Shown piece after piece: positions 12,817 to 62,244 of a stretch of 64,000 nucleotides of DNA (the first letter of the stretch is position 1; each line of letters starts with the position of its first letter). Origin of the DNA: Ignavibacteriota bacterium (lineage in GTDB: Bacteria; Bacteroidota; Ignavibacteria; Tepidaquicellales; OLB5). The position numbers were made by a program, and so were the translations under genes. The DNA lies in the NCBI GenBank assembly GCA_003820375.1, contig RPQH01000008.1, forward strand, positions 8,567-72,566, given 5' to 3'. The notes under the pieces are model-generated. The model ran no database searches, was not told where the DNA came from, and saw only the letters and a list, made by a program, of their open reading frames with translations.

Positions 12817-13467
12817 AAAATTCAGAGTTGGGTTCAAAACAGTGCTAAGTTGGGTTCAAGTTGTGTCGGAGTTGGTATCAAGTTGGTATCAAGTTGGGTT
12901 ATCGTTTTTGGAAAACAGGGGTTAACTCATAGCAGTATAAGCAAATAACTCCGTCAGAAATGTGAGATTTTTGATTTAAGATTTGCGATTTTGAGCCAGA
13001 ATCGCTAATTTTTCATCAAAAAAAAAACTTCACTATATCATTAACCATTATCGCTATGGGAAAAATTTGGTAGCAAATATTTGTCGCTGTTGTTGGGGAG
13101 TTAAAGTAATACTTGAAGTTCATCCGTTTCAATTCCTGACACACCCCTTCCGCTTCGCTCCCTCCCCTCTCGAGAGGGGAATTCTTACCTCTTTATTTAT
13201 CCATGAGCTGAAATTGCTCAAAAAAGCACACTAAACACTCAATACACTCTAAGCACTCCACACACTCCAAACTATTTTTAGTTAAAACTTGACAATAAGC
13301 AATTACTATATTAAATTATACTGATAGTGCTTATATAGCTATATAAGCATAAATAACCGTTCTTTGTTAATATCGAAATGATATAAAGCATGTCGTAATA
13401 TTGTTCGAAAATGCTGCTAACGGATTTGGTTAGATTTTGGAGGGTTCAAAAAAATATGCACTGAAAA
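12817..13467 (+). repeat. ~0.65-kb non-coding repeat, copy 1
   Basis: Aligns along its length with 32584-33223 in the same orientation. The first ~470 nt are very similar by eye and the last ~170 nt are patchy. The track shows no ORF of 60 aa or more. Confidence 0.9.
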
Positions 13468-13531: not shown

Positions 13532-15913
13532 CTACCAGCTCAATCCAATTTTTGCAAAGAAATTTCTGCCGGGTTCTTGTGTAATTGTTCCCCTGTTAGT
13601 TGATAAATGATTTCTGTATTCTTTGTCAAGAATGTTTTCTATTCCGCCATACAAATTTATTTTCACTCCGCTGAATTTGATAGGCATACTTTGTACATAT
13701 AAGTTTAGTGTAACATACCCGGGAGTTTCAACTTCGCCTGCTGCAATTTTATTTTGCCTGGCAAAAAACATTACAGAGAAATCTAAGTTAGCATATTTAC
13801 CGGCAGCAGCTTTTAATCCAATTGAACCGTTTAACGGCGGTATCTGAGGCAGGTCTAAATCGTTTTCAATATCTCTTCCTCTTACATAAGATACTGTGCT
13901 GTAAAACACAAACTTTTTGTAGAAATTATATTCAAGGTTAGCATCAAAGCCATAGAACCTGGATTTTCCGGCATTGGTCTTTATCATTGCCTGCCTGTTT
14001 TCATATGTACCCGGTATTTCAATCACCAAGTCATTTATTGTATTTAAAAAACCGCTTCCTGTAAACTTGATAACAGGATTAAACACTTTAAATCCTGCAT
14101 CCAGGAATATCCCGTTTTCCGGATTTAAATCAGGATTACCCAGTCTTACAAGGCTGCCAAGATCAATGTACTGGTATCTTTCTTCCAGCGAAGGCGAGCG
14201 GAATGAACGTGCCGCATTAAAGGTGATACTTACATCATTATATAAAGCATACATTGCACCAACATTGGCACTCCACGAAATATCATCTTCGGCTGCAGAA
14301 TTCCAAATGATTTTTTGTCCTGCCGGAGTCCAGTTCCATCCTGTATCATTGGTTATTGTATATTCGGGATTATAAGCAATGTCATTAGTCACTTTTATCT
14401 GGTCAATTCTTCCGCCGATATTTATTTTTAATTTATCTTTGAACAATCTTATTTCATCCTGTGCAAATGCCCCAATGCTCCTGTATGATGAAATCGGTAT
14501 CGGCCTCTCCCCTGTTACCTGTTTTATAGTTTTAATTACAACCGTTCCGGTCGAATCATAATCTTCAATTACCTGTTCTCTTGTTCTCCTGCTGTCGAGG
14601 TCTCTTTGCCATGCATCAAATCCTGCAATTACAAAGTTATACTTTCCCAGCAGCCAGCCCGATTGAAGTGAAAATCCTTTTGTATTGTGGTCTGCCTGCG
14701 GTTTTATGTTTAATACACTCACTTTTTTCTTTAATACATTTCCTGCATAAACCTTTTGCACAATGTGCGGAATATTTTCCACATCCCTGAAAATATACTG
14801 GTAATAAAATTTTGCAGAAACATCTTTAAGTATTTTTGAGATTTGAGATATTTTATACTCCGCACTTAACAAGCTTCTTTCTTCCTTCGGGTAAGTGACA
14901 AGAGCATTATTAGGAAATAGAGGGTACCCGCCGGGAATCCCGACATCTTTTGCAAGATAATACTGGTAATTGATTTTTATTTCATTATTCCTGAAAGGAT
15001 TAACACCGAGTACACCCGAAAAATAATTATCTTTAAAGCCGCTGTTATTAATTTCACTGTTTGGTGTTTTGATATTACCGGCTTTTCTCATTGTTCCGTT
15101 TAGCTTCAGGAACCATCTTTCGGCACCTGCATATAGAAGAAGGTTGCCGCCTGTGCTGTTGTTTACACTGTTGTAATCGCTTAATATTTTGCCGCTGAAA
15201 GTAAACTTGCCTGCATACAGATTGCTCTTTGTAATTATATTTACAACTCCGCCCAATGCTCCCGTGCCGTACAGAGATGACATACCGCCTTTGATTATTT
15301 CAATCCTCTCAATATCGTTAATATCAAAAAGTGATAACCTTGCTGATATATCCGTAGCGGTTTCTATCCTGTTGCCGTCTACAAGTGTAACAATGCTTGA
15401 ACGGTTCATTCCTCTTATGTTAATATCCGTTGCCCAGATTCCGTCCCGTGTTAATGTAACTCCTGCTTTATTTTTCATTAAGTCCGAAGCAGAAACCGGG
15501 TTTCTCTGTGTTATCTCAGAATTATCCACCACCTCAACAGGAAGCGGAATGTTTTTTAATTGTTGTTCATGTCTAAAACTTGTTACAATTATTTCGCCAA
15601 GAGTTATTGATGACTGGTCAATCTTGAATTGAACTCTCAATACTGTATCGGGCAAAACATTTAATGTAAAAGTTTCCTTCTTGTATCCAAGATAAGAAAC
15701 CATAACATCATACTTACCGGCGGGTAAATCCTGAATAAGGAAATGCCCGATTTTATCAGTAAAAACCTTATAATCCAGATTTGATATATAAATAGCTGCA
15801 TCCTGCAATCCTTGTTCTGTATTTGCATCAGTAACATTTCCGCTAATAGCGCCGGTTTGTGCATAGCCAAAATTAATCGCAAATAATAGAAATAAAATTG
15901 GAAGTATTTTCAT
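13532..15913 (-). CDS. TonB-dependent outer-membrane receptor with CarboxypepD_reg-like N-domain
   Basis: 793-aa ORF with a signal peptide. It has a carboxypeptidase-regulatory-like domain (ISGNVTD...YDVMVSYLGYK), a plug region, and a beta-barrel ending in an aromatic residue (..KIGLSW). Confidence 0.9.
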   Translation of the reverse strand: MKILPILFLLFAINFGYAQTGAISGNVTDANTEQGLQDAAIYISNLDYKVFTDKIGHFLIQDLPAGKYDVMVSYLGYKKETFTLNVLPDTVLRVQFKIDQSSITLGEIIVTSFRHEQQLKNIPLPVEVVDNSEITQRNPVSASDLMKNKAGVTLTRDGIWATDINIRGMNRSSIVTLVDGNRIETATDISARLSLFDINDIERIEIIKGGMSSLYGTGALGGVVNIITKSNLYAGKFTFSGKILSDYNSVNNSTGGNLLLYAGAERWFLKLNGTMRKAGNIKTPNSEINNSGFKDNYFSGVLGVNPFRNNEIKINYQYYLAKDVGIPGGYPLFPNNALVTYPKEERSLLSAEYKISQISKILKDVSAKFYYQYIFRDVENIPHIVQKVYAGNVLKKKVSVLNIKPQADHNTKGFSLQSGWLLGKYNFVIAGFDAWQRDLDSRRTREQVIEDYDSTGTVVIKTIKQVTGERPIPISSYRSIGAFAQDEIRLFKDKLKINIGGRIDQIKVTNDIAYNPEYTITNDTGWNWTPAGQKIIWNSAAEDDISWSANVGAMYALYNDVSITFNAARSFRSPSLEERYQYIDLGSLVRLGNPDLNPENGIFLDAGFKVFNPVIKFTGSGFLNTINDLVIEIPGTYENRQAMIKTNAGKSRFYGFDANLEYNFYKKFVFYSTVSYVRGRDIENDLDLPQIPPLNGSIGLKAAAGKYANLDFSVMFFARQNKIAAGEVETPGYVTLNLYVQSMPIKFSGVKINLYGGIENILDKEYRNHLSTNRGTITQEPGRNFFAKIGLSW

Positions 15914-31259: not shown

Positions 31260-32495
31260 TCACTTTACCAGCACCATACGTCTCGTTTTCATGTAACTGC
31301 CTGCTTTAATCGTATAAAGATATATTCCGCTTGGATAATTTGATGCATCCCATATAATAGAGTAACTCCCTGCATTTCGCATCTGATTTACTAATACAGC
31401 AATTTCTCTTCCCATAACATCATATATAGAAAGCTTAACATCACTGCTCATTGCTAATTGATAATTGATAATTGTTACAGGATTAAACGGATTGGGGTAA
31501 TTCTGATACAGTTCGTAATCTAATGGAATATTATTGCTGACAGGTTCTATTCCTGTTTGTGTTCCGCCATTGGTTGATTTATATATTGTACCTGTTCCTG
31601 TATTTGATGCAGCTGCAAGCCAGCCGGTGCTCTGGTTTATAAAATCAACCGAATTAAAAGCTGTATTATTTAAATTAAATTGCACGGTCCATGTGTTGCC
31701 GCCATTGGTGGATTTGGAAACACCGCCAATTCCCGTACCTGAAGTTCCTGCAAGCCACCCGGTATTATTATCTATAAAATGAATTGAATTAAATCCATTA
31801 CCACTCATAGTATATTGTGTATTCCACGTATTTCCACCGTTTGTGGATTTAAAAATCCTGCCAAAACCGGAGCTTGATTTTGTTGCTAACCAGCCCGTGT
31901 TCTGGTTTATAAAGAAAACTGAATTAAATGCTGTATCAATTAAAACATATTGTGAATTCCATGTGTTACCGCCATTGGTGGATTTTTCTATTTCGCCTAT
32001 AAATCCCGAACTTGATATATTTGTCCTCCATCCTGTATTTTGGTCAATAAAGTAAACCGAAGTAACGGTGTAAGATGCCCATAATTGAATGGTCCAGGTG
32101 TTTCCACCGTTTGTAGATTTATATAATCCACCGGTTCCATTGCCCGATTTAGTTGCTAACCAGCCTGTACTTTGATTAAGAAAGAAAACCGATTTAAAAG
32201 CAGTATCTGTAGAAAAACACAGTGTATTCCATGTATTTCCACCGTTTGTAGATTTATATAATGTTCCCGTACTTGTACCTGATGAGACAGCAAGCCATCC
32301 GGTATTTATATCAATAAAGTGTACTGAATTAAATGATGCATTATTTGAAGTGTACTGTACTGTCCATTGACTGTATAAAATTGTTACCTGAAATAAAACG
32401 AACAATGATAAAAGTACCTTTGCGGCAGGTTTCATAATTTCTGTATTAATAAAATTTATTATGGTGAGCTGCAATATAAATTGATTTTTCATCAA
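31260..32495 (-). CDS. Secreted BNR/Ycf48-like propeller-repeat protein with T9SS C-terminal domain
   Basis: 411-aa ORF (probable start MKPAAKV at 32435). It has 7 repeats of KSTNGGNTW and a C-terminal NYPNPFNP domain. Confidence 0.8.
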   Translation of the reverse strand: MMKNQFILQLTIINFINTEIMKPAAKVLLSLFVLFQVTILYSQWTVQYTSNNASFNSVHFIDINTGWLAVSSGTSTGTLYKSTNGGNTWNTLCFSTDTAFKSVFFLNQSTGWLATKSGNGTGGLYKSTNGGNTWTIQLWASYTVTSVYFIDQNTGWRTNISSSGFIGEIEKSTNGGNTWNSQYVLIDTAFNSVFFINQNTGWLATKSSSGFGRIFKSTNGGNTWNTQYTMSGNGFNSIHFIDNNTGWLAGTSGTGIGGVSKSTNGGNTWTVQFNLNNTAFNSVDFINQSTGWLAAASNTGTGTIYKSTNGGTQTGIEPVSNNIPLDYELYQNYPNPFNPVTIINYQLAMSSDVKLSIYDVMGREIAVLVNQMRNAGSYSIIWDASNYPSGIYLYTIKAGSYMKTRRMVLVK

Positions 32496-32583: not shown

Positions 32584-33223
32584 AAAATCAGAGTTGGGTT
32601 CAAAACAAGTCGGAGATGGGTTAAAGTTGTGTCGGAGTTGGGTTCAAGTTGGTATCAAGTTGGGTTATCGTTTATCAAAAACAGGGGTTAACTCATTGCA
32701 GTATAAGGAGATAACGCCGTCAGAAATGCGAGATTTTTGATTTAAGATTTGCGATTTTGAGCCGGAATAGCCAATTTTTCATCAAAAAAAAACTTCACTA
32801 TATCATTAACCATTATCGCTATGGGAAAAATTTGGCAGCAAATATTTGTCGCTGATGTTGGAGAGTTAAAGTATTACTTGAAGGTATTTCCGGTTCATTA
32901 TCAAACACACCCCTTCCGCTTCGCTCCCTCCCCTCTCGAGAGGGAAATCCTTACCTCTTTATTTATCTATTGATTAAAATTGCTTAAAAAGCACTCTAAA
33001 CACTCTATACACACTAAGCATTCTATACACACCAATCTATTTTTAAATAAAACTTGACAAACACAAATATCGTAAATACATTTGTATAGTGATAAATATT
33101 ATCACTTAATACAGTTCTTTAATAATATAGAGATGGTTTACAGCATGTCGTAATATAGCTGTAAAATGATGCTCACGAATTTGGTTAGATTTTGAAATGT
33201 TGAAAAAAATATGCACTGAAAAA
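32584..33223 (+). repeat. ~0.65-kb non-coding repeat, copy 2
   Basis: Colinear with 12817-13467. It begins 88 nt upstream of the minus-strand T9SS gene start. Confidence 0.9.
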
Positions 33224-33234
33224 TACCCTAAGGA

Positions 33235-33360
33235 CAATTAGCAATGAACAATTAGCAATGAACAATTAGCAATGAACAATGAGCAATGAACAATTAGCAA
33301 TGAACAATGAACAATGAACAATAAGCAATGAACAATGATCAATGAACAATTATCAATGAA
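33235..33360. repeat. Heptamer tandem array (18 units of CAATNRN)
   Basis: caattag caatgaa alternation with variants caatgag, caataag, caatgat and caattat. Confidence 0.9.
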
Positions 33361-51502: not shown

Positions 51503-51699
51503 TTGGTCATGTCTTTAAATTTCTTGGAGTCATAGTCTTTGGGCTCCCCAAACCTTTTAATTATATCATCCATTTCCTTTTTACTTACAGTAGGAAGTAA
51601 TATCTCTAAAAGTTTATTTCTTTCTTCATTAATTACAGATCTCACACTATCAGTAATTAATTGCATTAATTCAGATTTATTTATATTAATCTTATCCAT
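51487..51699 (-). CDS. Putative antitoxin upstream of the RelE-like gene
   Basis: 70-aa ORF overlapping the toxin start by 16 nt. No family was recognised; the call rests on position. Confidence 0.4.
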   Translation of the reverse strand: MDKININKSELMQLITDSVRSVINEERNKLLEILLPTVSKKEMDDIIKRFGEPKDYDSKKFKDMTKWIMG

Positions 51700-51990
51700 T
51701 CGATATTGTTTCTTAAAAAATAGAAAAAAAATTCAAAATAAAACACCTATTTGTATTGACAATATTGGTAACATTTTTCAATTCTTTATTGTCTCAACCA
51801 GTACTGCTGTTGTTGAATTTTCCTTTATAACCTTTTATTTCTTTCTAAAAATTACGGATATCTCTATAACCGGCATATTTATAATACTTTACAGCAACTA
51901 TATATCTTTAATCTAACGTTACAAACATGACATAAATCATAGGTAAAAAACAGCTTATTTCTTATTTTTGTACATACAAATTGTGTCATC

Positions 51991-55276: not shown

Positions 55277-55524
55277 CAGTACCGGGTAAGATAATGAGTA
55301 TTACCCAGATTAATGAGTTTGAAAGAATGGGCAAAGTAAACTTCGGAGGCATAACGAAAGACATAAACCTGTCATATGTCCCCGAAGCAAAAGTGGATGA
55401 TTATGTTATTGTTCATGTCGGTTTTGCTCTCAGTGTAGTTGATGAAGAAGAAGCACAAAAAGTTTTTGAATATCTGAAGGAAATGGATGATATTGATGAA
55501 CTAAATGCAGATGAATCGAAATGA
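55267..55524 (+). CDS. hypC: Hydrogenase assembly chaperone HypC
   Basis: 85-aa ORF with N-terminal MCLAVPGKI. Confidence 0.92.
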
Positions 55525-56618
55525 AATACATAGATGAATATAGAGATGCAGTATCCGCAAAGAAACTTGCTAATGCAATAACTGATATTACCACAAAGCA
55601 ATGGACGATCATGGAAATCTGCGGGGGGCAAACTCATTCTATAGTTAAATACGGAATTGATGAACTGCTCCCAAAGCAAATTACACTTGTACATGGACCC
55701 GGATGTCCTGTTTGTGTTACACCTATTGAGATAATTAATAAGGCAATTGAGATAGCTTCAAGAGAAAATGTGATTTTTTGCTCATTTGGCGATATGCTGC
55801 GTGTACCGGGGACAGAAAAGGATTTACTTTCAGTGAAGGCGTCAGGGGGTGATGTAAGAATTGTGTATTCACCTATGGATGCAGTAAAGCTTGCGGAAAG
55901 CAATCCTGACAAGGAAGTTGTATTCTTTGCTGTGGGATTTGAAACAACAGCACCCGCAAACGCAATGGCTGTATATAAGGCAAAAGAGCTTAAATTATCA
56001 AATTTTTCAATCCTGGTATCACATGTTTTAGTACCGCCTGCTATTGAAGCTATCCTTTCAGCACCGAACCACATTGTGCAGGGATTCCTTGCGGCAGGTC
56101 ATGTATGTACTGTTATGGGATATGAGGAGTACTTCCCTATTTCAGAAAAATACAAAGTGCCGATTGTAGTGACTGGTTTTGAACCTGTTGATATTTTACA
56201 TGGAATATATATGTGCATAAAACAGCTTGAAAATGGAAGATATGAGGTTGAAAACCAATATACACGATCTGTGAAAAAAGAAGGAAATACAGGTGCACAA
56301 AGCATAATTAAGAAGGTATTTAGGGTAGTTCATCGCAAATGGCGGGGAGTTGGAGAGATTCCTTACAGCGGATTAGGATTGAATGATGAATATATTGATT
56401 ATGATGCAGAAAGAAGGTTTAATCTGACTGAGATGACTACAGAAGAATCAAAGGACTGTATTGCAGGAGAAATTTTGCAGGGATTTAAGAAGCCTTTTGA
56501 ATGCACTGCTTTTGGCAATAAATGCACACCTGAGTTTCCTATTGGTGCTCCTATGGTTTCATCGGAGGGAGCTTGTGCAGCGTATTACCGTTATCGGAAG
56601 CTGGAGGTTAGAAGTTAG
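55521..56618 (+). CDS. hypD: Hydrogenase maturation factor HypD
   Basis: 365-aa ORF with GPGCPVCV and FETT motifs. The last codons (..EVRS*) are encoded by the gttagaa repeat. Confidence 0.95.
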
Positions 56619-56633
56619 AAGTTAGAAGTTAGA
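56607..56633. repeat. Left arm: heptamer array (gttagaa x ~4)
   Basis: gttagaagttagaagttagaagttaga is the inverted partner of 57033-57062. Confidence 0.85.
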
Positions 56634-56669
56634 TTAAAAGTTTGTTTTTAATATATAACTACAATAAAA

Positions 56670-57032
56670 ATGATAAAGTCCTATAAAGATTTGAATGTAT
56701 ATCAGGCATCTTTTTCTGTAGCTATGGAAATATTTGAATTAACTAAAAAATTTCCAAGAGAAGAAATCTATTCTTTAACAGACCAAATAAGAAGATCTTC
56801 CAGATCTGTTACATCTAACATTGTTGAAGGATGGGCAATGCGGAGATATGAAAACGTTTTTAAAAGACATTTGGTCAATTCCCTCGGTTCCTGTGCTGAG
56901 ACAAGTGTATGGATAGAATTTGCATTTTAGTGTAAATATATAGAAGAAGAAACATTTAACTGCATTATTAATCAATGCAATGAAGTTGGTAAAATGTTGA
57001 ATTCTCTACATGATAATTGGAAATCATTTTAA
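56670..57032 (+). pseudogene. Four-helix-bundle protein (23S rRNA intervening-sequence protein family) with in-frame TAG
   Basis: 86 codons (YKDLNVYQ..REEIYSLTDQIRRSSRSVTSNIVEG..) end at TAG 56928-56930. The same frame continues CKYIEEETFNCIINQCNEVGKMLNSLHDNWKSF* to the family-typical length of ~120 aa. Confidence 0.7.
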
Positions 57033-57062
57033 TCTAACTTCTAACTTCTAGCTTCTAACTTC
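57033..57062. repeat. Right arm: inverted heptamer array
   Basis: tctaacttctaacttctagcttctaacttc is the reverse complement of the gttagaa array, with 1-2 mismatches. Confidence 0.85.
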
Positions 57063-57094
57063 TTATTTGTCGAAAGTTTAAAAGAAAAGAGTAA

Positions 57095-58141
57095 ATGAAA
57101 AATAAAGAATTTATATTATCCTGCCCGGTTGAGATACAAAAATACCCATCTGTTATGATGGCTCATGGCGGGGGCGGAAAGCTTATGCATAATCTCATCG
57201 AAAAGATGTTTATGCCGGAATTCAGCAAAATAGATGCAGGTAAGAGGCATGACTCTGCCGTGATTGATATTTCTTCAAATAAGCTTGCATTTACAACCGA
57301 TTCTTATGTAATCCATCCTTTATTCTTTCCGGGCGGCGATATTGGCTCGCTTGCTGTGCATGGTACGGTAAATGACCTTGCTATGAGCGGTGCTGTTCCC
57401 AAATACATCAGTGCAGGGTTCATCATAGAAGAAGGATTACCGATGGAAACACTATGGAGAATTGTCAATTCCATGAAGGAAACAGCAAAAATCTGCGGTG
57501 TAGAAATAATTACAGGTGATACTAAGGTTGTAGATAAAGGCAAAGGTGATGGAATATTTATTAATACTTCAGGAATTGGCGTTATTGAGCATAATTTGAG
57601 CATAAATCCAGCATCCATTAAAGAAGGAGATGCTATTATTATTAACGGGGATATCGGAAGACACGGTATTGCTATAATGGCAGTCAGAGAAGGGCTTGAG
57701 TTCGAAACGGTAATCGAAAGCGATTCTGCACCTCTTAATAGTATTGTAAATAAGCTAATTAATGAAGGTATCGAAATCCACTGTATGCGTGACCTTACCA
57801 GGGGCGGTTTATCCAGTGCACTTGCCGAAATTGCTGAAGCTTCTAATTTTGGCATAAATATTAATGAAAAGGATATTCCTGTTAGGGAAGATGTGCGGGG
57901 TGCCTGCGAGATACTCGGACTTGACCCGCTTTATGTTGCTAATGAAGGAAGGTTTGTTTTGTTTGTTCCGGAAAAAGATGCGGCTAAAGCATTACAATTA
58001 ATGCAGTTAGAAGAGCCGGCTGTTTCCATGATAGGTACTGTAAATACCAATAATAAAGGCATGGTTACTATGAAGAGCGTTATTGAGGCATCAAGAATTA
58101 TAGACATGCTGAGCGGTGAGCAGCTTCCGAGGATTTGCTGA
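57095..58141 (+). CDS. hypE: Hydrogenase maturation factor HypE
   Basis: 348-aa ORF of the AIR-synthase-like fold with the canonical C-terminus ..PRIC*. Confidence 0.95.
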
Positions 58142-58930: not shown

Positions 58931-60589
58931 CTATTTTATTAAAACCAACTTCCTTGTTTCAACAAACTCCCCTGCTTGCAATGAATAAAAATACACACCG
59001 CTTGCAAAATCTCCTGCATTCCAATCAACTTCGTGAATGCCTGCTTCCAGCTTACCGTTTATAAGGGTTGCTACTTCTCTTCCGGTTATATCATAAATTT
59101 TCAATACCACATGTTCCACCCCCCTTGCCCCCCTTTTAGGGGGGATTGAAAAGCGGATGCGGGTTGATGGATTGAAGGGATTGGGATAGTTTTGTGATAA
59201 TTCAAATCTATCAGGTATGTGCGTTGAGCTTGGGTTTGTTCCCACAAACTGAGAATATTTTATTGTTGTGAGCCCCTGTACACTGCTACCTGACACAAAT
59301 ACATTATTAAATTTATCTAAACCAAGAAAGTTCGCATAATCCGTCGATGAATTACTCGGGCTGTTATATATTTGCAGCCATTGCTGAACTCCGGATGAGT
59401 TATATTTAATTGTTGTATAATCCCATCCTGAACCACTTCCGGGTCTGGGACTATTATCACTGAAACCTGTTACATACACGTTATCGTATTTATCAATTTT
59501 TATTGACGAAGGTATATCCAAATTATTATAAGGGTCGTTATACCTCTGTACCCATTGCTGCACTCCGGATGAGTTATATTTAATTGTAGCGAAGTCCCTT
59601 TGTGTACCGGTACCTGTGCTATAGCCAGTTATATATACATTACTGCTGCTATCTACAGCTATTGAAGTGGCCTTATCTTCATATGCGCCTCCGGGTGAAA
59701 AGTATTTTTGGGTCCATATAGAATCACCTGATGAATTGTATTTAATCGTTACAAAATGGGAATTATAACTACTCCCTGTGCAACCGCCGGTTACATAAAT
59801 ATTACCAAGTTTATCCAAAGCTATTGATGTTGTCTCATCAAACCAATTTCCTGTACCATTATATCTTCTTACCCACTGCTCAACACCTGATGAATTATAC
59901 TTTATCGTACAATAATCATTGGATAAGCTATCGATCCAACAGCTTGAACCTGTTATATATACATTACCTAGTCTATCCAGTACTAAAGCAATAGCTCCGT
60001 TAAACTTTTGATAATCATCTATACTGCCTGTATATCTTGTTTCCCATTGTTTCACTCCGGAAGTATTGTATTTTATTGTAACACAATCATATCCTGTATA
60101 ATTATCACCCACACTTTGTCCTGTCACATATGTATTTCCTGAGTCATCGGTTTTAAGTGAAAACGCAATGTCAATTGAATTTCCTGAACCATTGTAAATT
60201 TGTACCCATTGCAGTATACCTGAGGAACTATATTTTATTGTGCAGTAATCACTTGTAGTATAATAAGAATTCCAATTAGTCACACCTGTAATATAAACGT
60301 TACCCCATTTATCCACATCAATTGAATAACCAATATCCATATAGCTGTAAGTACCGTTATATGTCTTTACCCATTGAAGTACACCTGAGGAATTATATTT
60401 AATTGTTATTATATCATGCGAATCTATTAGCCAGCATACTCCAGTAATATATACATTTCCTGAATCATCAATTGCACCTGTATTTGCACTGCTGTTTGGA
60501 TATATTGCCGCCCATTCCTGTGTTACCTGTGCAAGTGATATATTTATTGTACAAAATGAAATAAATAAATAAGTAAAAATCTTTTTCAT
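58931..60589 (-). CDS. Secreted SBBP beta-propeller-repeat protein with T9SS C-terminal domain
   Basis: 552-aa ORF with a signal peptide, ~9 repeats of ..NVY[IV]TG....D[YF].T[IV]KYN.SGV.QW, and a C-terminal NYPNPFNPST domain. Confidence 0.8.
   Translation of the reverse strand: MKKIFTYLFISFCTINISLAQVTQEWAAIYPNSSANTGAIDDSGNVYITGVCWLIDSHDIITIKYNSSGVLQWVKTYNGTYSYMDIGYSIDVDKWGNVYITGVTNWNSYYTTSDYCTIKYSSSGILQWVQIYNGSGNSIDIAFSLKTDDSGNTYVTGQSVGDNYTGYDCVTIKYNTSGVKQWETRYTGSIDDYQKFNGAIALVLDRLGNVYITGSSCWIDSLSNDYCTIKYNSSGVEQWVRRYNGTGNWFDETTSIALDKLGNIYVTGGCTGSSYNSHFVTIKYNSSGDSIWTQKYFSPGGAYEDKATSIAVDSSSNVYITGYSTGTGTQRDFATIKYNSSGVQQWVQRYNDPYNNLDIPSSIKIDKYDNVYVTGFSDNSPRPGSGSGWDYTTIKYNSSGVQQWLQIYNSPSNSSTDYANFLGLDKFNNVFVSGSSVQGLTTIKYSQFVGTNPSSTHIPDRFELSQNYPNPFNPSTRIRFSIPPKRGARGVEHVVLKIYDITGREVATLINGKLEAGIHEVDWNAGDFASGVYFYSLQAGEFVETRKLVLIK
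59115..59146. repeat. GC-rich palindrome embedded in-frame in the T9SS domain
   Basis: cccccc-tttta-gggggg (59128-59144), preceded by a C-run. It encodes PPKRGARGVEH. Confidence 0.75.
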
Positions 60590-60600
60590 GATGTTTTCTT

Positions 60601-62244
60601 TTATTTAAGTAAAACTAATTTCTTCGTATCAATCACTACTCCATCTGAAATCAATGAATAGAAATACACACCGCTTGCAAAATCTCCTGCATTCCAATCA
60701 ACTTCATGTGTGCCGGGAGTGAGCTTATCATTTATGAGAATCGCAACTTCCCTGCCAAGTATATCAAAGATTTTCAGGGACACTATCCCCCCTTTACCAA
60801 AGGGGGGACTAAGGGGGGTTTCCGGAATTTCAAACTTTATCTTTGTTGATGGATTGAATGGATTGGGATAGTTTTGTGATAATTCAAATCTATCCGGTAT
60901 GTTAGATGAGATTGGATTTGCACCAACAAACTGTGAATATTTTATTGTTACCAATTTTCTATTATAATTATTATATAAATGACTCGTCCCGGTTACATAT
61001 ACATTACCTGTTTTATCGATTGCCATTGAAGTTGCTACATCTACAGAGGTGGAATCACCATTATAAATTTGCGCCCATTGTAGGATACCTGATGAATTAA
61101 ATTTCACTGTGCAAAAGTCATTAATAGTATTAGTGGAAGATAATAATCCTGTTAAATAAATATTCCCCAACTTATCCATTGAACTGGCAAGTGGCTTACC
61201 AGATCCATAAAATGTAGGTGCATTATATACAGCAACCCATTGCTGAACACCTGATGTGTTATATTTGACTGTAGCGTAGCCGCGTTCTCCCTGTATTGAA
61301 ACGTTATTCCCCGATACATATGCGTTACCCAGCGTATCTACTATCATAGTAGATGCAATATCAGACATATTAGCTGGATCTTTGTACAATTTCACCCATT
61401 GTTGTACTCCGGACTTATCATATTTAATTGTACAATAATCAAATCCTATTTGACCGAGGCTTCCTCCAGTTACATAAACATTGCTATTAAAATCAACACC
61501 AATAGCATAGGTATTTTCCCAACTCGAATCATATATCCTAGCCCATTGAAAAACACCTGATGAATTGTATTTAACTGTACAATAGTCATAATAATTATTA
61601 TTAAAACCGCAGCTACCGCATATAAATACATTACCTGCGGTATCTATTGCTAATGCAGTACTCCATTCATTACCTATAATATCGTATGGTTGTGCCCATT
61701 GCTGAACACCTGATGTGTTATACTTAATAGTGTAAAATCCACGACCGGATGCAAGGCTATAACTATCTCCTGCTACATATATATTTCCTTTTTTGTCTAT
61801 TTTTACATCAGTAGGCCAATCCGAATTATTACCTGGTCCGTTAAATCTTTGTACCCACTGTTGAATACCCGAAGAATTGTATTTTATAGTACAGAAATCC
61901 TCCATTGTCCCTATACCAATACTGCTTCCTGTTACATATATATTACCGGATTTATCAATTGCCATAGCTGTTACCTTATCGGCTGAATCAGCCGGTGAAT
62001 TATAATATGTTACCCATTGCTGAATACCTGATGGACTGTATTTAATAATACAGTAGTCTGTTTGAGTACCCGGATTTATTTTACTGCATGATATATATAT
62101 ATTTCCCGCAGAGTCAGTTACTAAAAATGCATTATCAGAAGATAATGGTCCATTGAATATTTGTAACCACTCCTGTGTTACCTGTGCAAGTGATATATTT
62201 ATTGTACAAAATGAAATAAATAAATAAGTAAAAATCTTTTTCAT
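60601..62244 (-). CDS. Secreted SBBP beta-propeller-repeat protein with T9SS C-terminal domain (paralog)
   Basis: 547-aa ORF with the same repeat type. Its first 26 residues are identical to those of 58931-60589. Confidence 0.8.
   Translation of the reverse strand: MKKIFTYLFISFCTINISLAQVTQEWLQIFNGPLSSDNAFLVTDSAGNIYISCSKINPGTQTDYCIIKYSPSGIQQWVTYYNSPADSADKVTAMAIDKSGNIYVTGSSIGIGTMEDFCTIKYNSSGIQQWVQRFNGPGNNSDWPTDVKIDKKGNIYVAGDSYSLASGRGFYTIKYNTSGVQQWAQPYDIIGNEWSTALAIDTAGNVFICGSCGFNNNYYDYCTVKYNSSGVFQWARIYDSSWENTYAIGVDFNSNVYVTGGSLGQIGFDYCTIKYDKSGVQQWVKLYKDPANMSDIASTMIVDTLGNAYVSGNNVSIQGERGYATVKYNTSGVQQWVAVYNAPTFYGSGKPLASSMDKLGNIYLTGLLSSTNTINDFCTVKFNSSGILQWAQIYNGDSTSVDVATSMAIDKTGNVYVTGTSHLYNNYNRKLVTIKYSQFVGANPISSNIPDRFELSQNYPNPFNPSTKIKFEIPETPLSPPFGKGGIVSLKIFDILGREVAILINDKLTPGTHEVDWNAGDFASGVYFYSLISDGVVIDTKKLVLLK
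60785..60822. repeat. GC-rich palindrome embedded in-frame in the T9SS domain (variant)
   Basis: cccccc-tttaccaaa-gggggg followed by actaagggggg. It encodes ETPLSPPFGKGGI. Confidence 0.75.

Follow-up and report, generated by a model that had tools for sequence, protein, structure and literature searches.

Inverted heptanucleotide arrays flank a four-helix-bundle gene at a hypD-hypE junction of Ignavibacteriota and recur across its gene family

A stretch of 64,000 nucleotides from an Ignavibacteriota bacterium (contig RPQH01000008.1, positions 8,567 to 72,566; the whole stretch is referred to here as the window) carries a gene for a four-helix-bundle protein of the S23p/intervening sequence (IVS) family between the operon genes hypD and hypE. 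The gene is bracketed by tandem heptanucleotide arrays in inverted orientation, and comparison of related operons shows that arrays and gene form a unit, termed here a cassette, whose parts are present or absent together. In a survey of loci that encode relatives of the protein the same layout is found to be typical of the family: a purine-rich array with units of 7-8 nt, a leader, an open reading frame (ORF) of about 120 codons and a complementary array, with the whole placed directly at the stop codon of a host gene in the same orientation.

The cassette at the hypD-hypE junction

The features of the junction are as follows.

55521..56618, + strand, hypD (TIGR00075, E = 1e-155; PF01924)
56597..56639, + strand, left (5') arm: GAAGCTG and GAGGTTA (degenerate), perfect (GTTAGAA)x3.9, TTAAAA; arm proper 56604-56639
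56640..56669, + strand, A/T-rich leader from the left arm to the start codon, read from the sequence
56670..57032, + strand, four-helix-bundle gene (S23p / 23S_rRNA_IVP / Avd-like), 120 codons plus TAA (PF05635, TIGR02436)
56928..56930, + strand, in-frame TAG, codon 87 of the bundle gene
57027..57068, + strand, right (3') arm: TTTTAA overlapping the bundle-gene TAA, (TCTAACT)x4.4, degenerate TCTTATT
57095..58141, + strand, hypE (TIGR02124, E = 8e-137), the next operon gene

The left array has 3.9 copies of GTTAGAA at 56607-56633 with 100% matches, as found by Tandem Repeats Finder (TRF), by a repeat search and by reading of the sequence; the right array has, by TRF, 4.4 copies of TCTAACT at 57033-57063 with 91% matches and one G variant. 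Outer degenerate units, one or two a side, carry the arrays out to about 56597 on the left and 57068 on the right. The inverted arms (56604-56639 and 57027-57062) are 36 nt each, are 94% complementary and have 387 nt between them. Both DNA mismatches of the arms become G.U pairs in the sense strand, and thus the predicted sense RNA is an unbroken 37-bp helix, the 56604-56639 region with 57027-57063. A first-pass annotation of the window had described a heptamer array and its reverse complement around a 120-codon four-helix-bundle frame, which is what is seen here, but it gave a stem of about 27 bp where pairing spans 36-37 bp. The fold of the whole cassette has z = -5.9, and the arms alone fold at -53.4 kcal/mol. 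When the window was searched with a two-unit probe, GTTAGAAGTTAGAA, allowing up to one mismatch, all 6 matches were at the cassette, with 0.05 expected. Probe enrichment, fold z and the family-wide inverted-repeat scores given below rule out an artefact of chance or slippage.

The left array forms part of the hypD coding region. HypD ends in RKLEVRS-TAG, and the array encodes the EVRS codons and the stop (56616-56618), in agreement with the first-pass annotation. The distance from the left array to the bundle-gene ATG is 36 nt, and that from the right arm to the hypE start is 32 nt. A promoter scan predicted no sigma-70-like promoter on the + strand in the leader or the rest of the cassette, and no terminator was predicted on the + strand within the cassette or between hypD and hypE. 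Rfam gave no meaningful match, either for the whole window at the gathering threshold or for 56400-57300 at E <= 5. No transposase or recombinase is present in or beside the cassette (ORF list, Pfam scan), and no defence-system model of PADLOC matched.

The bundle gene matches PF05635 over profile positions 1-106 of 106 (E = 6e-35, 120.1 bits against a cut-off of 33.8) and TIGR02436 (E = 2e-31, 108.5 bits against a cut-off of 24), scores that were computed with X in place of the TAG. The profile match is thus full-length, but the frame of about 120 residues is not intact. Relatives with structures are 2GSC (the Xanthomonas protein XCC0516) and 2RLD, both deposited with 5 chains, and the Xanthomonas protein is reported as a homopentamer (PMC4990558). 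More than 6,400 clusters match the window bundle protein at E <= 1e-10; a tblastn search found no second bundle gene in the window.

The TAG interrupts the frame at the codon reported in the first-pass annotation. In an alignment with 23 homologues, column 87 is Asp or Glu, and once Lys. Since homologues have Asp or Glu here, the TAG is one G>T step from GAG (Glu), from which the aligned sequences suggest that it probably derived. The 33 codons downstream are intact and retain the invariant C88, Y90, M109, L113 and W117. At other positions the window protein is off-consensus: it has K57>M, where the family hardly varies, and E for the consensus W at position 23. An 86-aa truncated product is recorded from 2 contigs. 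It should be considered that the TAG is an error of the consensus or the assembly, or else represents a minority allele, and that the gene is intact in the organism. The window derives from a metagenome-assembled genome, the lesion is a single base change from GAG, and a second lesion is absent, the downstream codons being both intact and conserved. The record of the truncated product from two contigs, the other departures from the family and the sister lineages, which are without the cassette or have a stub only, point the other way. As these lineages lost the cassette or keep a stub, relaxed selection is expected in the window's clade, and cassette loss in that clade makes a real nonsense mutation plausible; an error is therefore considered unlikely.

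Nine related hyp operons were gathered through HypD homologues. The junctions are listed with the identity of their HypD to that of the window.

L082/L083, 79%: intact 121-aa bundle gene; AGAAGNN-type heptamers upstream, complement downstream
L084/L085, 83%: intact 120-aa bundle gene with arrays; hypD stop in array
L086, 83%: intact 120-aa bundle gene with arrays; hypD stop in array
L214, 84%: intact 121-aa bundle gene with arrays; hypD stop in array
L215, 84%: bundle gene and right arm absent; left-array stub as hypD tail, 2868-2898
L081, 87%: cassette-free, arrays absent
P0122, 90%: cassette-free, arrays absent; 11-nt spacer
L216, 80%: cassette-free

Intact orthologous cassettes are thus present in five other Ignavibacteria hyp operons. 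The upstream arrays at cassette-bearing junctions have AGAAGYY or GTYAGAA units, with the complement downstream. Relatives with the gene and without inverted arrays, which the first-pass annotation had named as evidence against its proposal, were not found among these operons: all gene-bearing junctions carry arrays. Since presence of the arrays goes with presence of the gene, they are part of the cassette at this junction. In L215, hypD ends in the units AGAAATC, AGAAGTT and AGAGGGG, followed by TAG, and by its sequence this tail is the footprint of a lost cassette that has been kept as coding sequence. In a HypD neighbour-joining tree (one gene, no bootstrap support), cassette carriers are found in all three clades, and the window groups with L215, which has the stub, and with L081 and P0122, which are both clean. 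Presence and absence at the junction are patchy, and a clear new insertion was not seen among the relatives compared. As read from these junctions, the cassette was already present between hypD and hypE in the common ancestor of several Ignavibacteria lineages, and it is being lost in the clade of the window. The simplest history for these sequences would be one old insertion followed by several losses, with the window caught at the nonsense stage.

The hypC-hypD spacers of L084 (2725-3000), L214 (1430-1800) and L086 (2869-3000) are 130-370 nt long and are filled with G+C-rich palindromic repeats resembling repetitive extragenic palindromic (REP) sequences, e.g., GTCCTTCGACTCC and CCCCCTGACAGGGGGAGG. 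In the window, unlike in these three operons, hypC and hypD overlap.

Between L084 and L086, dN/dS is 0.095 for the bundle gene, compared with 0.071 for HypD, 0.096 for HypF and 0.027 for HypE. Pairwise identities of the bundle proteins (67, 62, 62 and 88%) track those of HypF (64, 70, 69 and 84%). These substitution patterns show purifying selection on the bundle protein in relatives at the hyp junction. With orthologues intact and selection as strong as on HypD and HypF, the protein is not generally a decaying passenger. Thus the first-pass annotation's reading of the TAG as a sign that the passenger gene is decaying applies to the window lineage, part of a clade that is losing the cassette, but not in general, and the TAG fits a lineage-specific decay.

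The two arms also vary together. The variable ends of the units match across the arms, with GTT/AAC in the window, GCY/RGC in L084 and L086, and RTC/GAY in L082. In L214 the GTT variant has expanded in the left arm opposite a right arm of GCC type, and the arms pair through U.G in the sense RNA, at -27.9 kcal/mol as against -19.5 kcal/mol antisense. Array copy number varies between sides and between lineages, an outcome that slippage would give.

Layout across the gene family

To place the cassette within its family, 80 loci encoding bundle relatives were taken from species-representative genomes of the Bacteroidota, Ignavibacteriota, Acidobacteriota, Desulfobacterota, Planctomycetota, Omnitrophota, candidate division WOR-3 and others. 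Inverted repeats were scored as the best local alignment of the 150 nt upstream with the reverse complement of the 150 nt downstream, and 145 ORFs from the same loci served as controls. Of 78 loci, 55 score above the 95th control percentile and 49 above the 99th (Mann-Whitney p = 1e-27). Nearly all of the arrays repeat every 7 or 8 nt. Their units are diverse and include GCCAGAA, GGACAGA, GGCAGAA, AGTAAGA, CAGTGAT, GGGAGAAA, GAGTTTTA and more. AGA is found in 35 of 56 consensus units (mean 18.9 and maximum 28 in letter-shuffled units), and AGARG in 17 of 56 (shuffled mean 7.1, maximum 15).

The neighbour upstream is co-oriented with the bundle gene in 63 of 67 loci (94%), as against 65% for background adjacent ORFs (p = 3e-8). 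In 19 of 46 loci the stop codon of this host gene falls within the upstream arm or directly beside it, and in 15 more it is no more than 20 nt away (34/46). A location in rRNA was found in none of the 40 bundle loci checked by Rfam, nor in the window. These positions indicate that bundle-gene cassettes usually live at the 3' ends of protein-coding genes in the same orientation and not in rRNA. The proposal of the first-pass annotation that IVS-like hairpin cassettes can live in mRNA operons is thus upheld, and across the 78 loci discrete units of arrays and gene are usual there.

The purine-rich arm was considered as evidence of gene polarity, on the ground that it is always upstream, and was rejected. 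A convergent array pair is symmetric and reads purine-rich first on either strand, and thus the pattern belongs to the palindrome and not to the orientation of the gene. The informative signals of orientation are co-orientation with the host gene and the proportion of convergent to divergent pairs.

The same layout is found on cyanobacterial plasmids, with GCAGGGGA and its complement in Nostoc punctiforme pNPUN02 and with GGGTGTA and its complement in Calothrix. One viral contig has the array layout and two others do not. On plasmid gamma of Nostoc PCC 7120 (L211, 1430-1960) a bundle gene has a right array of CTTCTGC units but lacks one on the left; the end of an ISL3 transposase gene is 78 nt upstream, and the left arm may thus have been replaced by insertion of an insertion sequence (IS) element.

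Arrays also occur where there is no bundle gene. When metagenome contigs were scanned for exact (GTTAGAA)x3, at least 119 loci were obtained, and among the matches listed a bundle gene lies within 300 nt in 5 of 119. The other listed loci have either a solo array or an "empty" hairpin, in which two convergent arrays enclose a loop of 3-104 nt, and are found in contigs of 38-67% G+C; empty (GTTAGAA)n/(TTCTAAC)n hairpins with loops of 3-21 nt are those of L104, L110, L133, L136, L137, L193, L194 and L196. The few pairs that are 260-610 nt apart mostly enclose a bundle gene of another subfamily, with an array-encoded C-terminus ..SNF-stop. Again among the matches listed, convergent pairs outnumber divergent pairs by 24 to 3, and a same-strand ORF ends in or at the array for 29 of 55 solo arrays. 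The notion that the arrays occur only with the gene is rejected by the many solo arrays and empty hairpins, which make up most of the listed metagenome (GTTAGAA)n; since arrays greatly outnumber cassettes, they also exist independently of the bundle gene.

Heptanucleotide arrays of known kinds include GGGAATC in Xanthomonas, where there are 70-75 convergent inverted array pairs, GGGGAYT, a short tandemly repeated repetitive (STRR) sequence, in Nostoc, and TAACTGA in the Beggiatoaceae (PMC4692102, PMC4679880). One of the Xanthomonas arrays is similar in placement to that of the window, being directly upstream of the bundle-protein gene XCC0516. In X. campestris ATCC 33913 this is repeat #15 (622956-622983), a GGGAATC array of 4 units (PMC4692102 supplement) located 6 nt past bccP (XCC0517); it also runs over the annotated start of XCC0516, the gene of the 2GSC protein. 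Unlike the arrays of the window, most arrays have no bundle gene alongside. In a term search of PMC4692102 and PMC4679880, no mention of S23p, four-helix-bundle proteins or intervening sequences was found.

Transcript processing and other roles for the arrays

The reading that we favour as the probable one, on the strength of the layout and of the analogy with rRNA, is that the cassette is an IVS-type hairpin carried in the hyp operon transcript, whose arms would form a duplex cut by RNase III. ORF-bearing IVSs of 23S rRNA are found at helix 45 in Coxiella burnetii and also in Leptospira and others, and the defining sites are helix 25 or 45. They share with the window cassette an ORF of the S23p family (PF05635) in the loop of a long terminal-inverted-repeat stem, and in both the ORF is prone to decay in some lineages. 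In the Coxiella IVS, AGAAGA and 2-3 copies of the purine-rich heptamer GACAGAT, strain-variable in number, are found upstream of S23p (PMC4990558), just as (GTTAGAA)x3.9 is found directly before the ORF in the window. Differences are also clear. The window cassette is located between protein-coding genes of an mRNA operon and not in an rRNA helix, its left arm also supplies the final codons and stop of the host gene, and its orthologues are kept by purifying selection; the Coxiella protein, by contrast, is reported to be one that is probably not produced (PMC4990558). The cassette is evidently homologous to the ORF-bearing 23S rRNA IVS but lacks the rRNA location that defines it.

In the favoured reading, the cassette would have no promoter of its own and would be transcribed as part of the host operon. 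The arms would then pair in the transcript into a duplex of 36-37 bp, which RNase III may cut as it does the Coxiella IVS, where excision is by RNase III with a cut at the first repeat (PMC4990558). Such a cut would free the RNA for the bundle protein and split the message between hypD and hypE. Where the heptamer includes TAG or TAA, its array has a stop in each of the three frames, and thus arrays of this type could replace the last part of a host ORF without making it longer. A stop codon in every unit is rejected as a universal property, as GCCAGAA and GGACAGA have no stop triplet.

Several observations weigh against a role of the hairpin in the transcript. Family-wide, arm mismatches show no excess of sense G.U (67 vs 60), and sense folds are weakly more stable than antisense folds (34 vs 21 loci, Wilcoxon p = 0.023); with RNA-specific signals so weak or neutral, pairing could be kept at the DNA level. 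A cut in the left arm could remove the hypD stop, which would be costly, and ribosomes that reach the stop at 56616-56618 would open much of the stem. In addition, arrays are far commoner than cassettes in metagenomes, as the 5 of 119 listed loci with a bundle gene show.

A function at the DNA level should therefore be weighed, whereby the inverted arrays are the termini of a mobile or recombinogenic element, similar to MITEs (miniature inverted-repeat transposable elements) or acting as a cruciform or hairpin substrate, which an unnamed enzyme would move in trans; the RNA stem would then be a by-product. This is consistent with the lack of a family-wide sense G.U bias, the patchy distribution at the hypD-hypE junction, the preponderance of convergent pairs among the metagenome matches listed, and copies on conjugative plasmids and one viral contig. 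Empty GTTAGAA/TTCTAAC hairpins are found in contigs of 38-67% G+C, and the AT-rich unit, being compositionally foreign in many of these hosts, points to horizontal spread. Further likenesses to MITEs are the inverted repeats at the ends, the patchy distribution and the existence of empty versions that carry no cargo. However, by inspection no direct repeat is found outside the arms in the window, L082 or L084, so that no target-site duplication marks these boundaries. The cassette further differs from MITEs in that its arms are tandem arrays whose length and copy number change with side and orthologue, unlike defined terminal repeats, and its cargo is a conserved gene under selection. The absence of a transposase or recombinase in or beside it is a further point, and we know of no cognate transposase. 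The pattern at the hyp junction is better explained by one old insertion with losses than by repeated insertion, and a DNA element does not predict the 94% co-orientation with the upstream host gene. We regard such an element as quite improbable.

Alternatively, the arrays may be binding sites of the pentameric bundle protein, which would recognise a purine core (AGA or AGARG) on RNA or DNA. Arrays at its own gene would then serve autoregulation, and solo arrays and empty hairpins would be further targets of a post-transcriptional regulon. It would account for a period of 7-8 nt that is retained while unit sequences turn over, and it is in keeping with the enrichment of AGA and AGARG over letter-shuffled units, with arrays far outnumbering cassettes, with the same-strand ORFs that end in or at 29 of the 55 solo arrays listed and with purifying selection on the protein. 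Avd, an accessory protein of the same superfamily, binds nucleic acid and reverse transcriptase. The pentameric relatives (2GSC and 2RLD with 5 chains each; the Xanthomonas homopentamer, PMC4990558) and the role of Avd in diversity-generating retroelements (DGRs; PMC10053308) also speak for this reading. On the other hand, the shared core is short and modestly enriched, and no other GTTAGAA array is present in the window. The GTTAGAA unit moreover flanks two bundle subfamilies that are about 35% identical by a by-eye estimate, and thus unit and protein do not obviously co-evolve. On these sequence data, binding of the arrays by the bundle protein has a low probability.

The window protein itself is homologous to Avd (bAvd) as a four-helix bundle and gives weak matches of 30 bits to PF22296 and 31.3 bits to NF033474, both short of their curated cut-offs (40 and 80 bits). 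There is no reverse transcriptase among the ORFs of at least 110 aa scanned between 45.1 and 62.2 kb, unlike in a DGR; template and variable repeats were not searched for. The features tested thus reject both a DGR Avd (scores below cut-off, no reverse transcriptase) and a MITE (no target-site duplication) as identities of the cassette.

Roles as a DNA-level element and as binding sites are compatible with processing of the RNA, and the possibilities are not mutually exclusive. In a wider and highly speculative form of the binding-site proposal, S23p/Avd-like proteins would be the missing trans-acting partners of the 7-8-nt arrays at operon junctions across many bacteria, and this may cover the GGGAATC arrays of Xanthomonas, the STRR-type heptamers of cyanobacteria, TAACTGA of the Beggiatoaceae and the GTTAGAA arrays. 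If so, array-flanked bundle genes would be self-marked "master" copies of a genome-wide system, and the pentamer would bind the arrays or even help to create them. Arrays that always face each other as 5'-purine-rich ... pyrimidine-rich-3' have the polarity that is expected if an Avd- or reverse transcriptase-like templated activity put short repeats onto the 3' ends at either side of a break.

Genomic setting and significance

The cassette is set in a co-directional cluster of [NiFe]-hydrogenase genes and hypA-B-F-C-D-(cassette)-E. ORFs of at least 110 aa between 45.1 and 62.2 kb encode hydrogenase and Hyp proteins and proteins with C-terminal tails of the type IX secretion system (T9SS), and one ORF of 125 aa (51539-51916) is without a Pfam match. 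Three ORFs of the minus strand (58931-60589, 60601-62244 and 31260-32495) are paralogous secreted proteins. By Pfam, the first two have an SBBP beta-propeller repeat and a T9SS C-terminal sorting domain, which is in keeping with an origin in the Ignavibacteriota/FCB group; the third, as judged from its sequence, has the same sorting-tail-like C-terminus.

Two non-coding repeats of about 480 nt (12820-13290 and 32590-33050) are 91% identical, and both open with an 11-mer array (AAGTTGGGTTC) and close with a 9-mer array (CACTCTAAA). They show no Rfam match and no convincing ORF. Each adjoins a minus-strand gene, the first a large outer-membrane-type ORF (13532-15913) and the second the T9SS-tail protein at 31260-32495. 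Directly downstream of the second repeat is a tandem array (33234-33360) of 9.1 copies of a 14-nt unit, ACAATTAGCAATGA, with 92% matches.

The S23p/IVS protein family is said to have been described first in 23S rRNA intervening sequences, by Ralph and McClelland in 1993, and to our knowledge no function has been assigned to it since then. Why bacterial genomes have an excess of heptanucleotide tandem arrays is likewise unexplained (PMC4692102, PMC4679880). The window and the comparison made here tie these two puzzles together. In the full-text literature searched, the Coxiella IVS study (PMC4990558) is the only one to note heptamers beside the ORF, and a general rule is not stated; subscription journals were outside this coverage and an earlier description is possible. 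Across the roughly 90 other loci compared, the inverted-array layout, described until now only within rRNA genes, is the usual one for the family at ordinary gene ends, and it gives a simple annotation rule for bundle genes. The hyp junction in turn preserves the stages of cassette loss, from intact copies through a nonsense copy and an array stub to clean sites.

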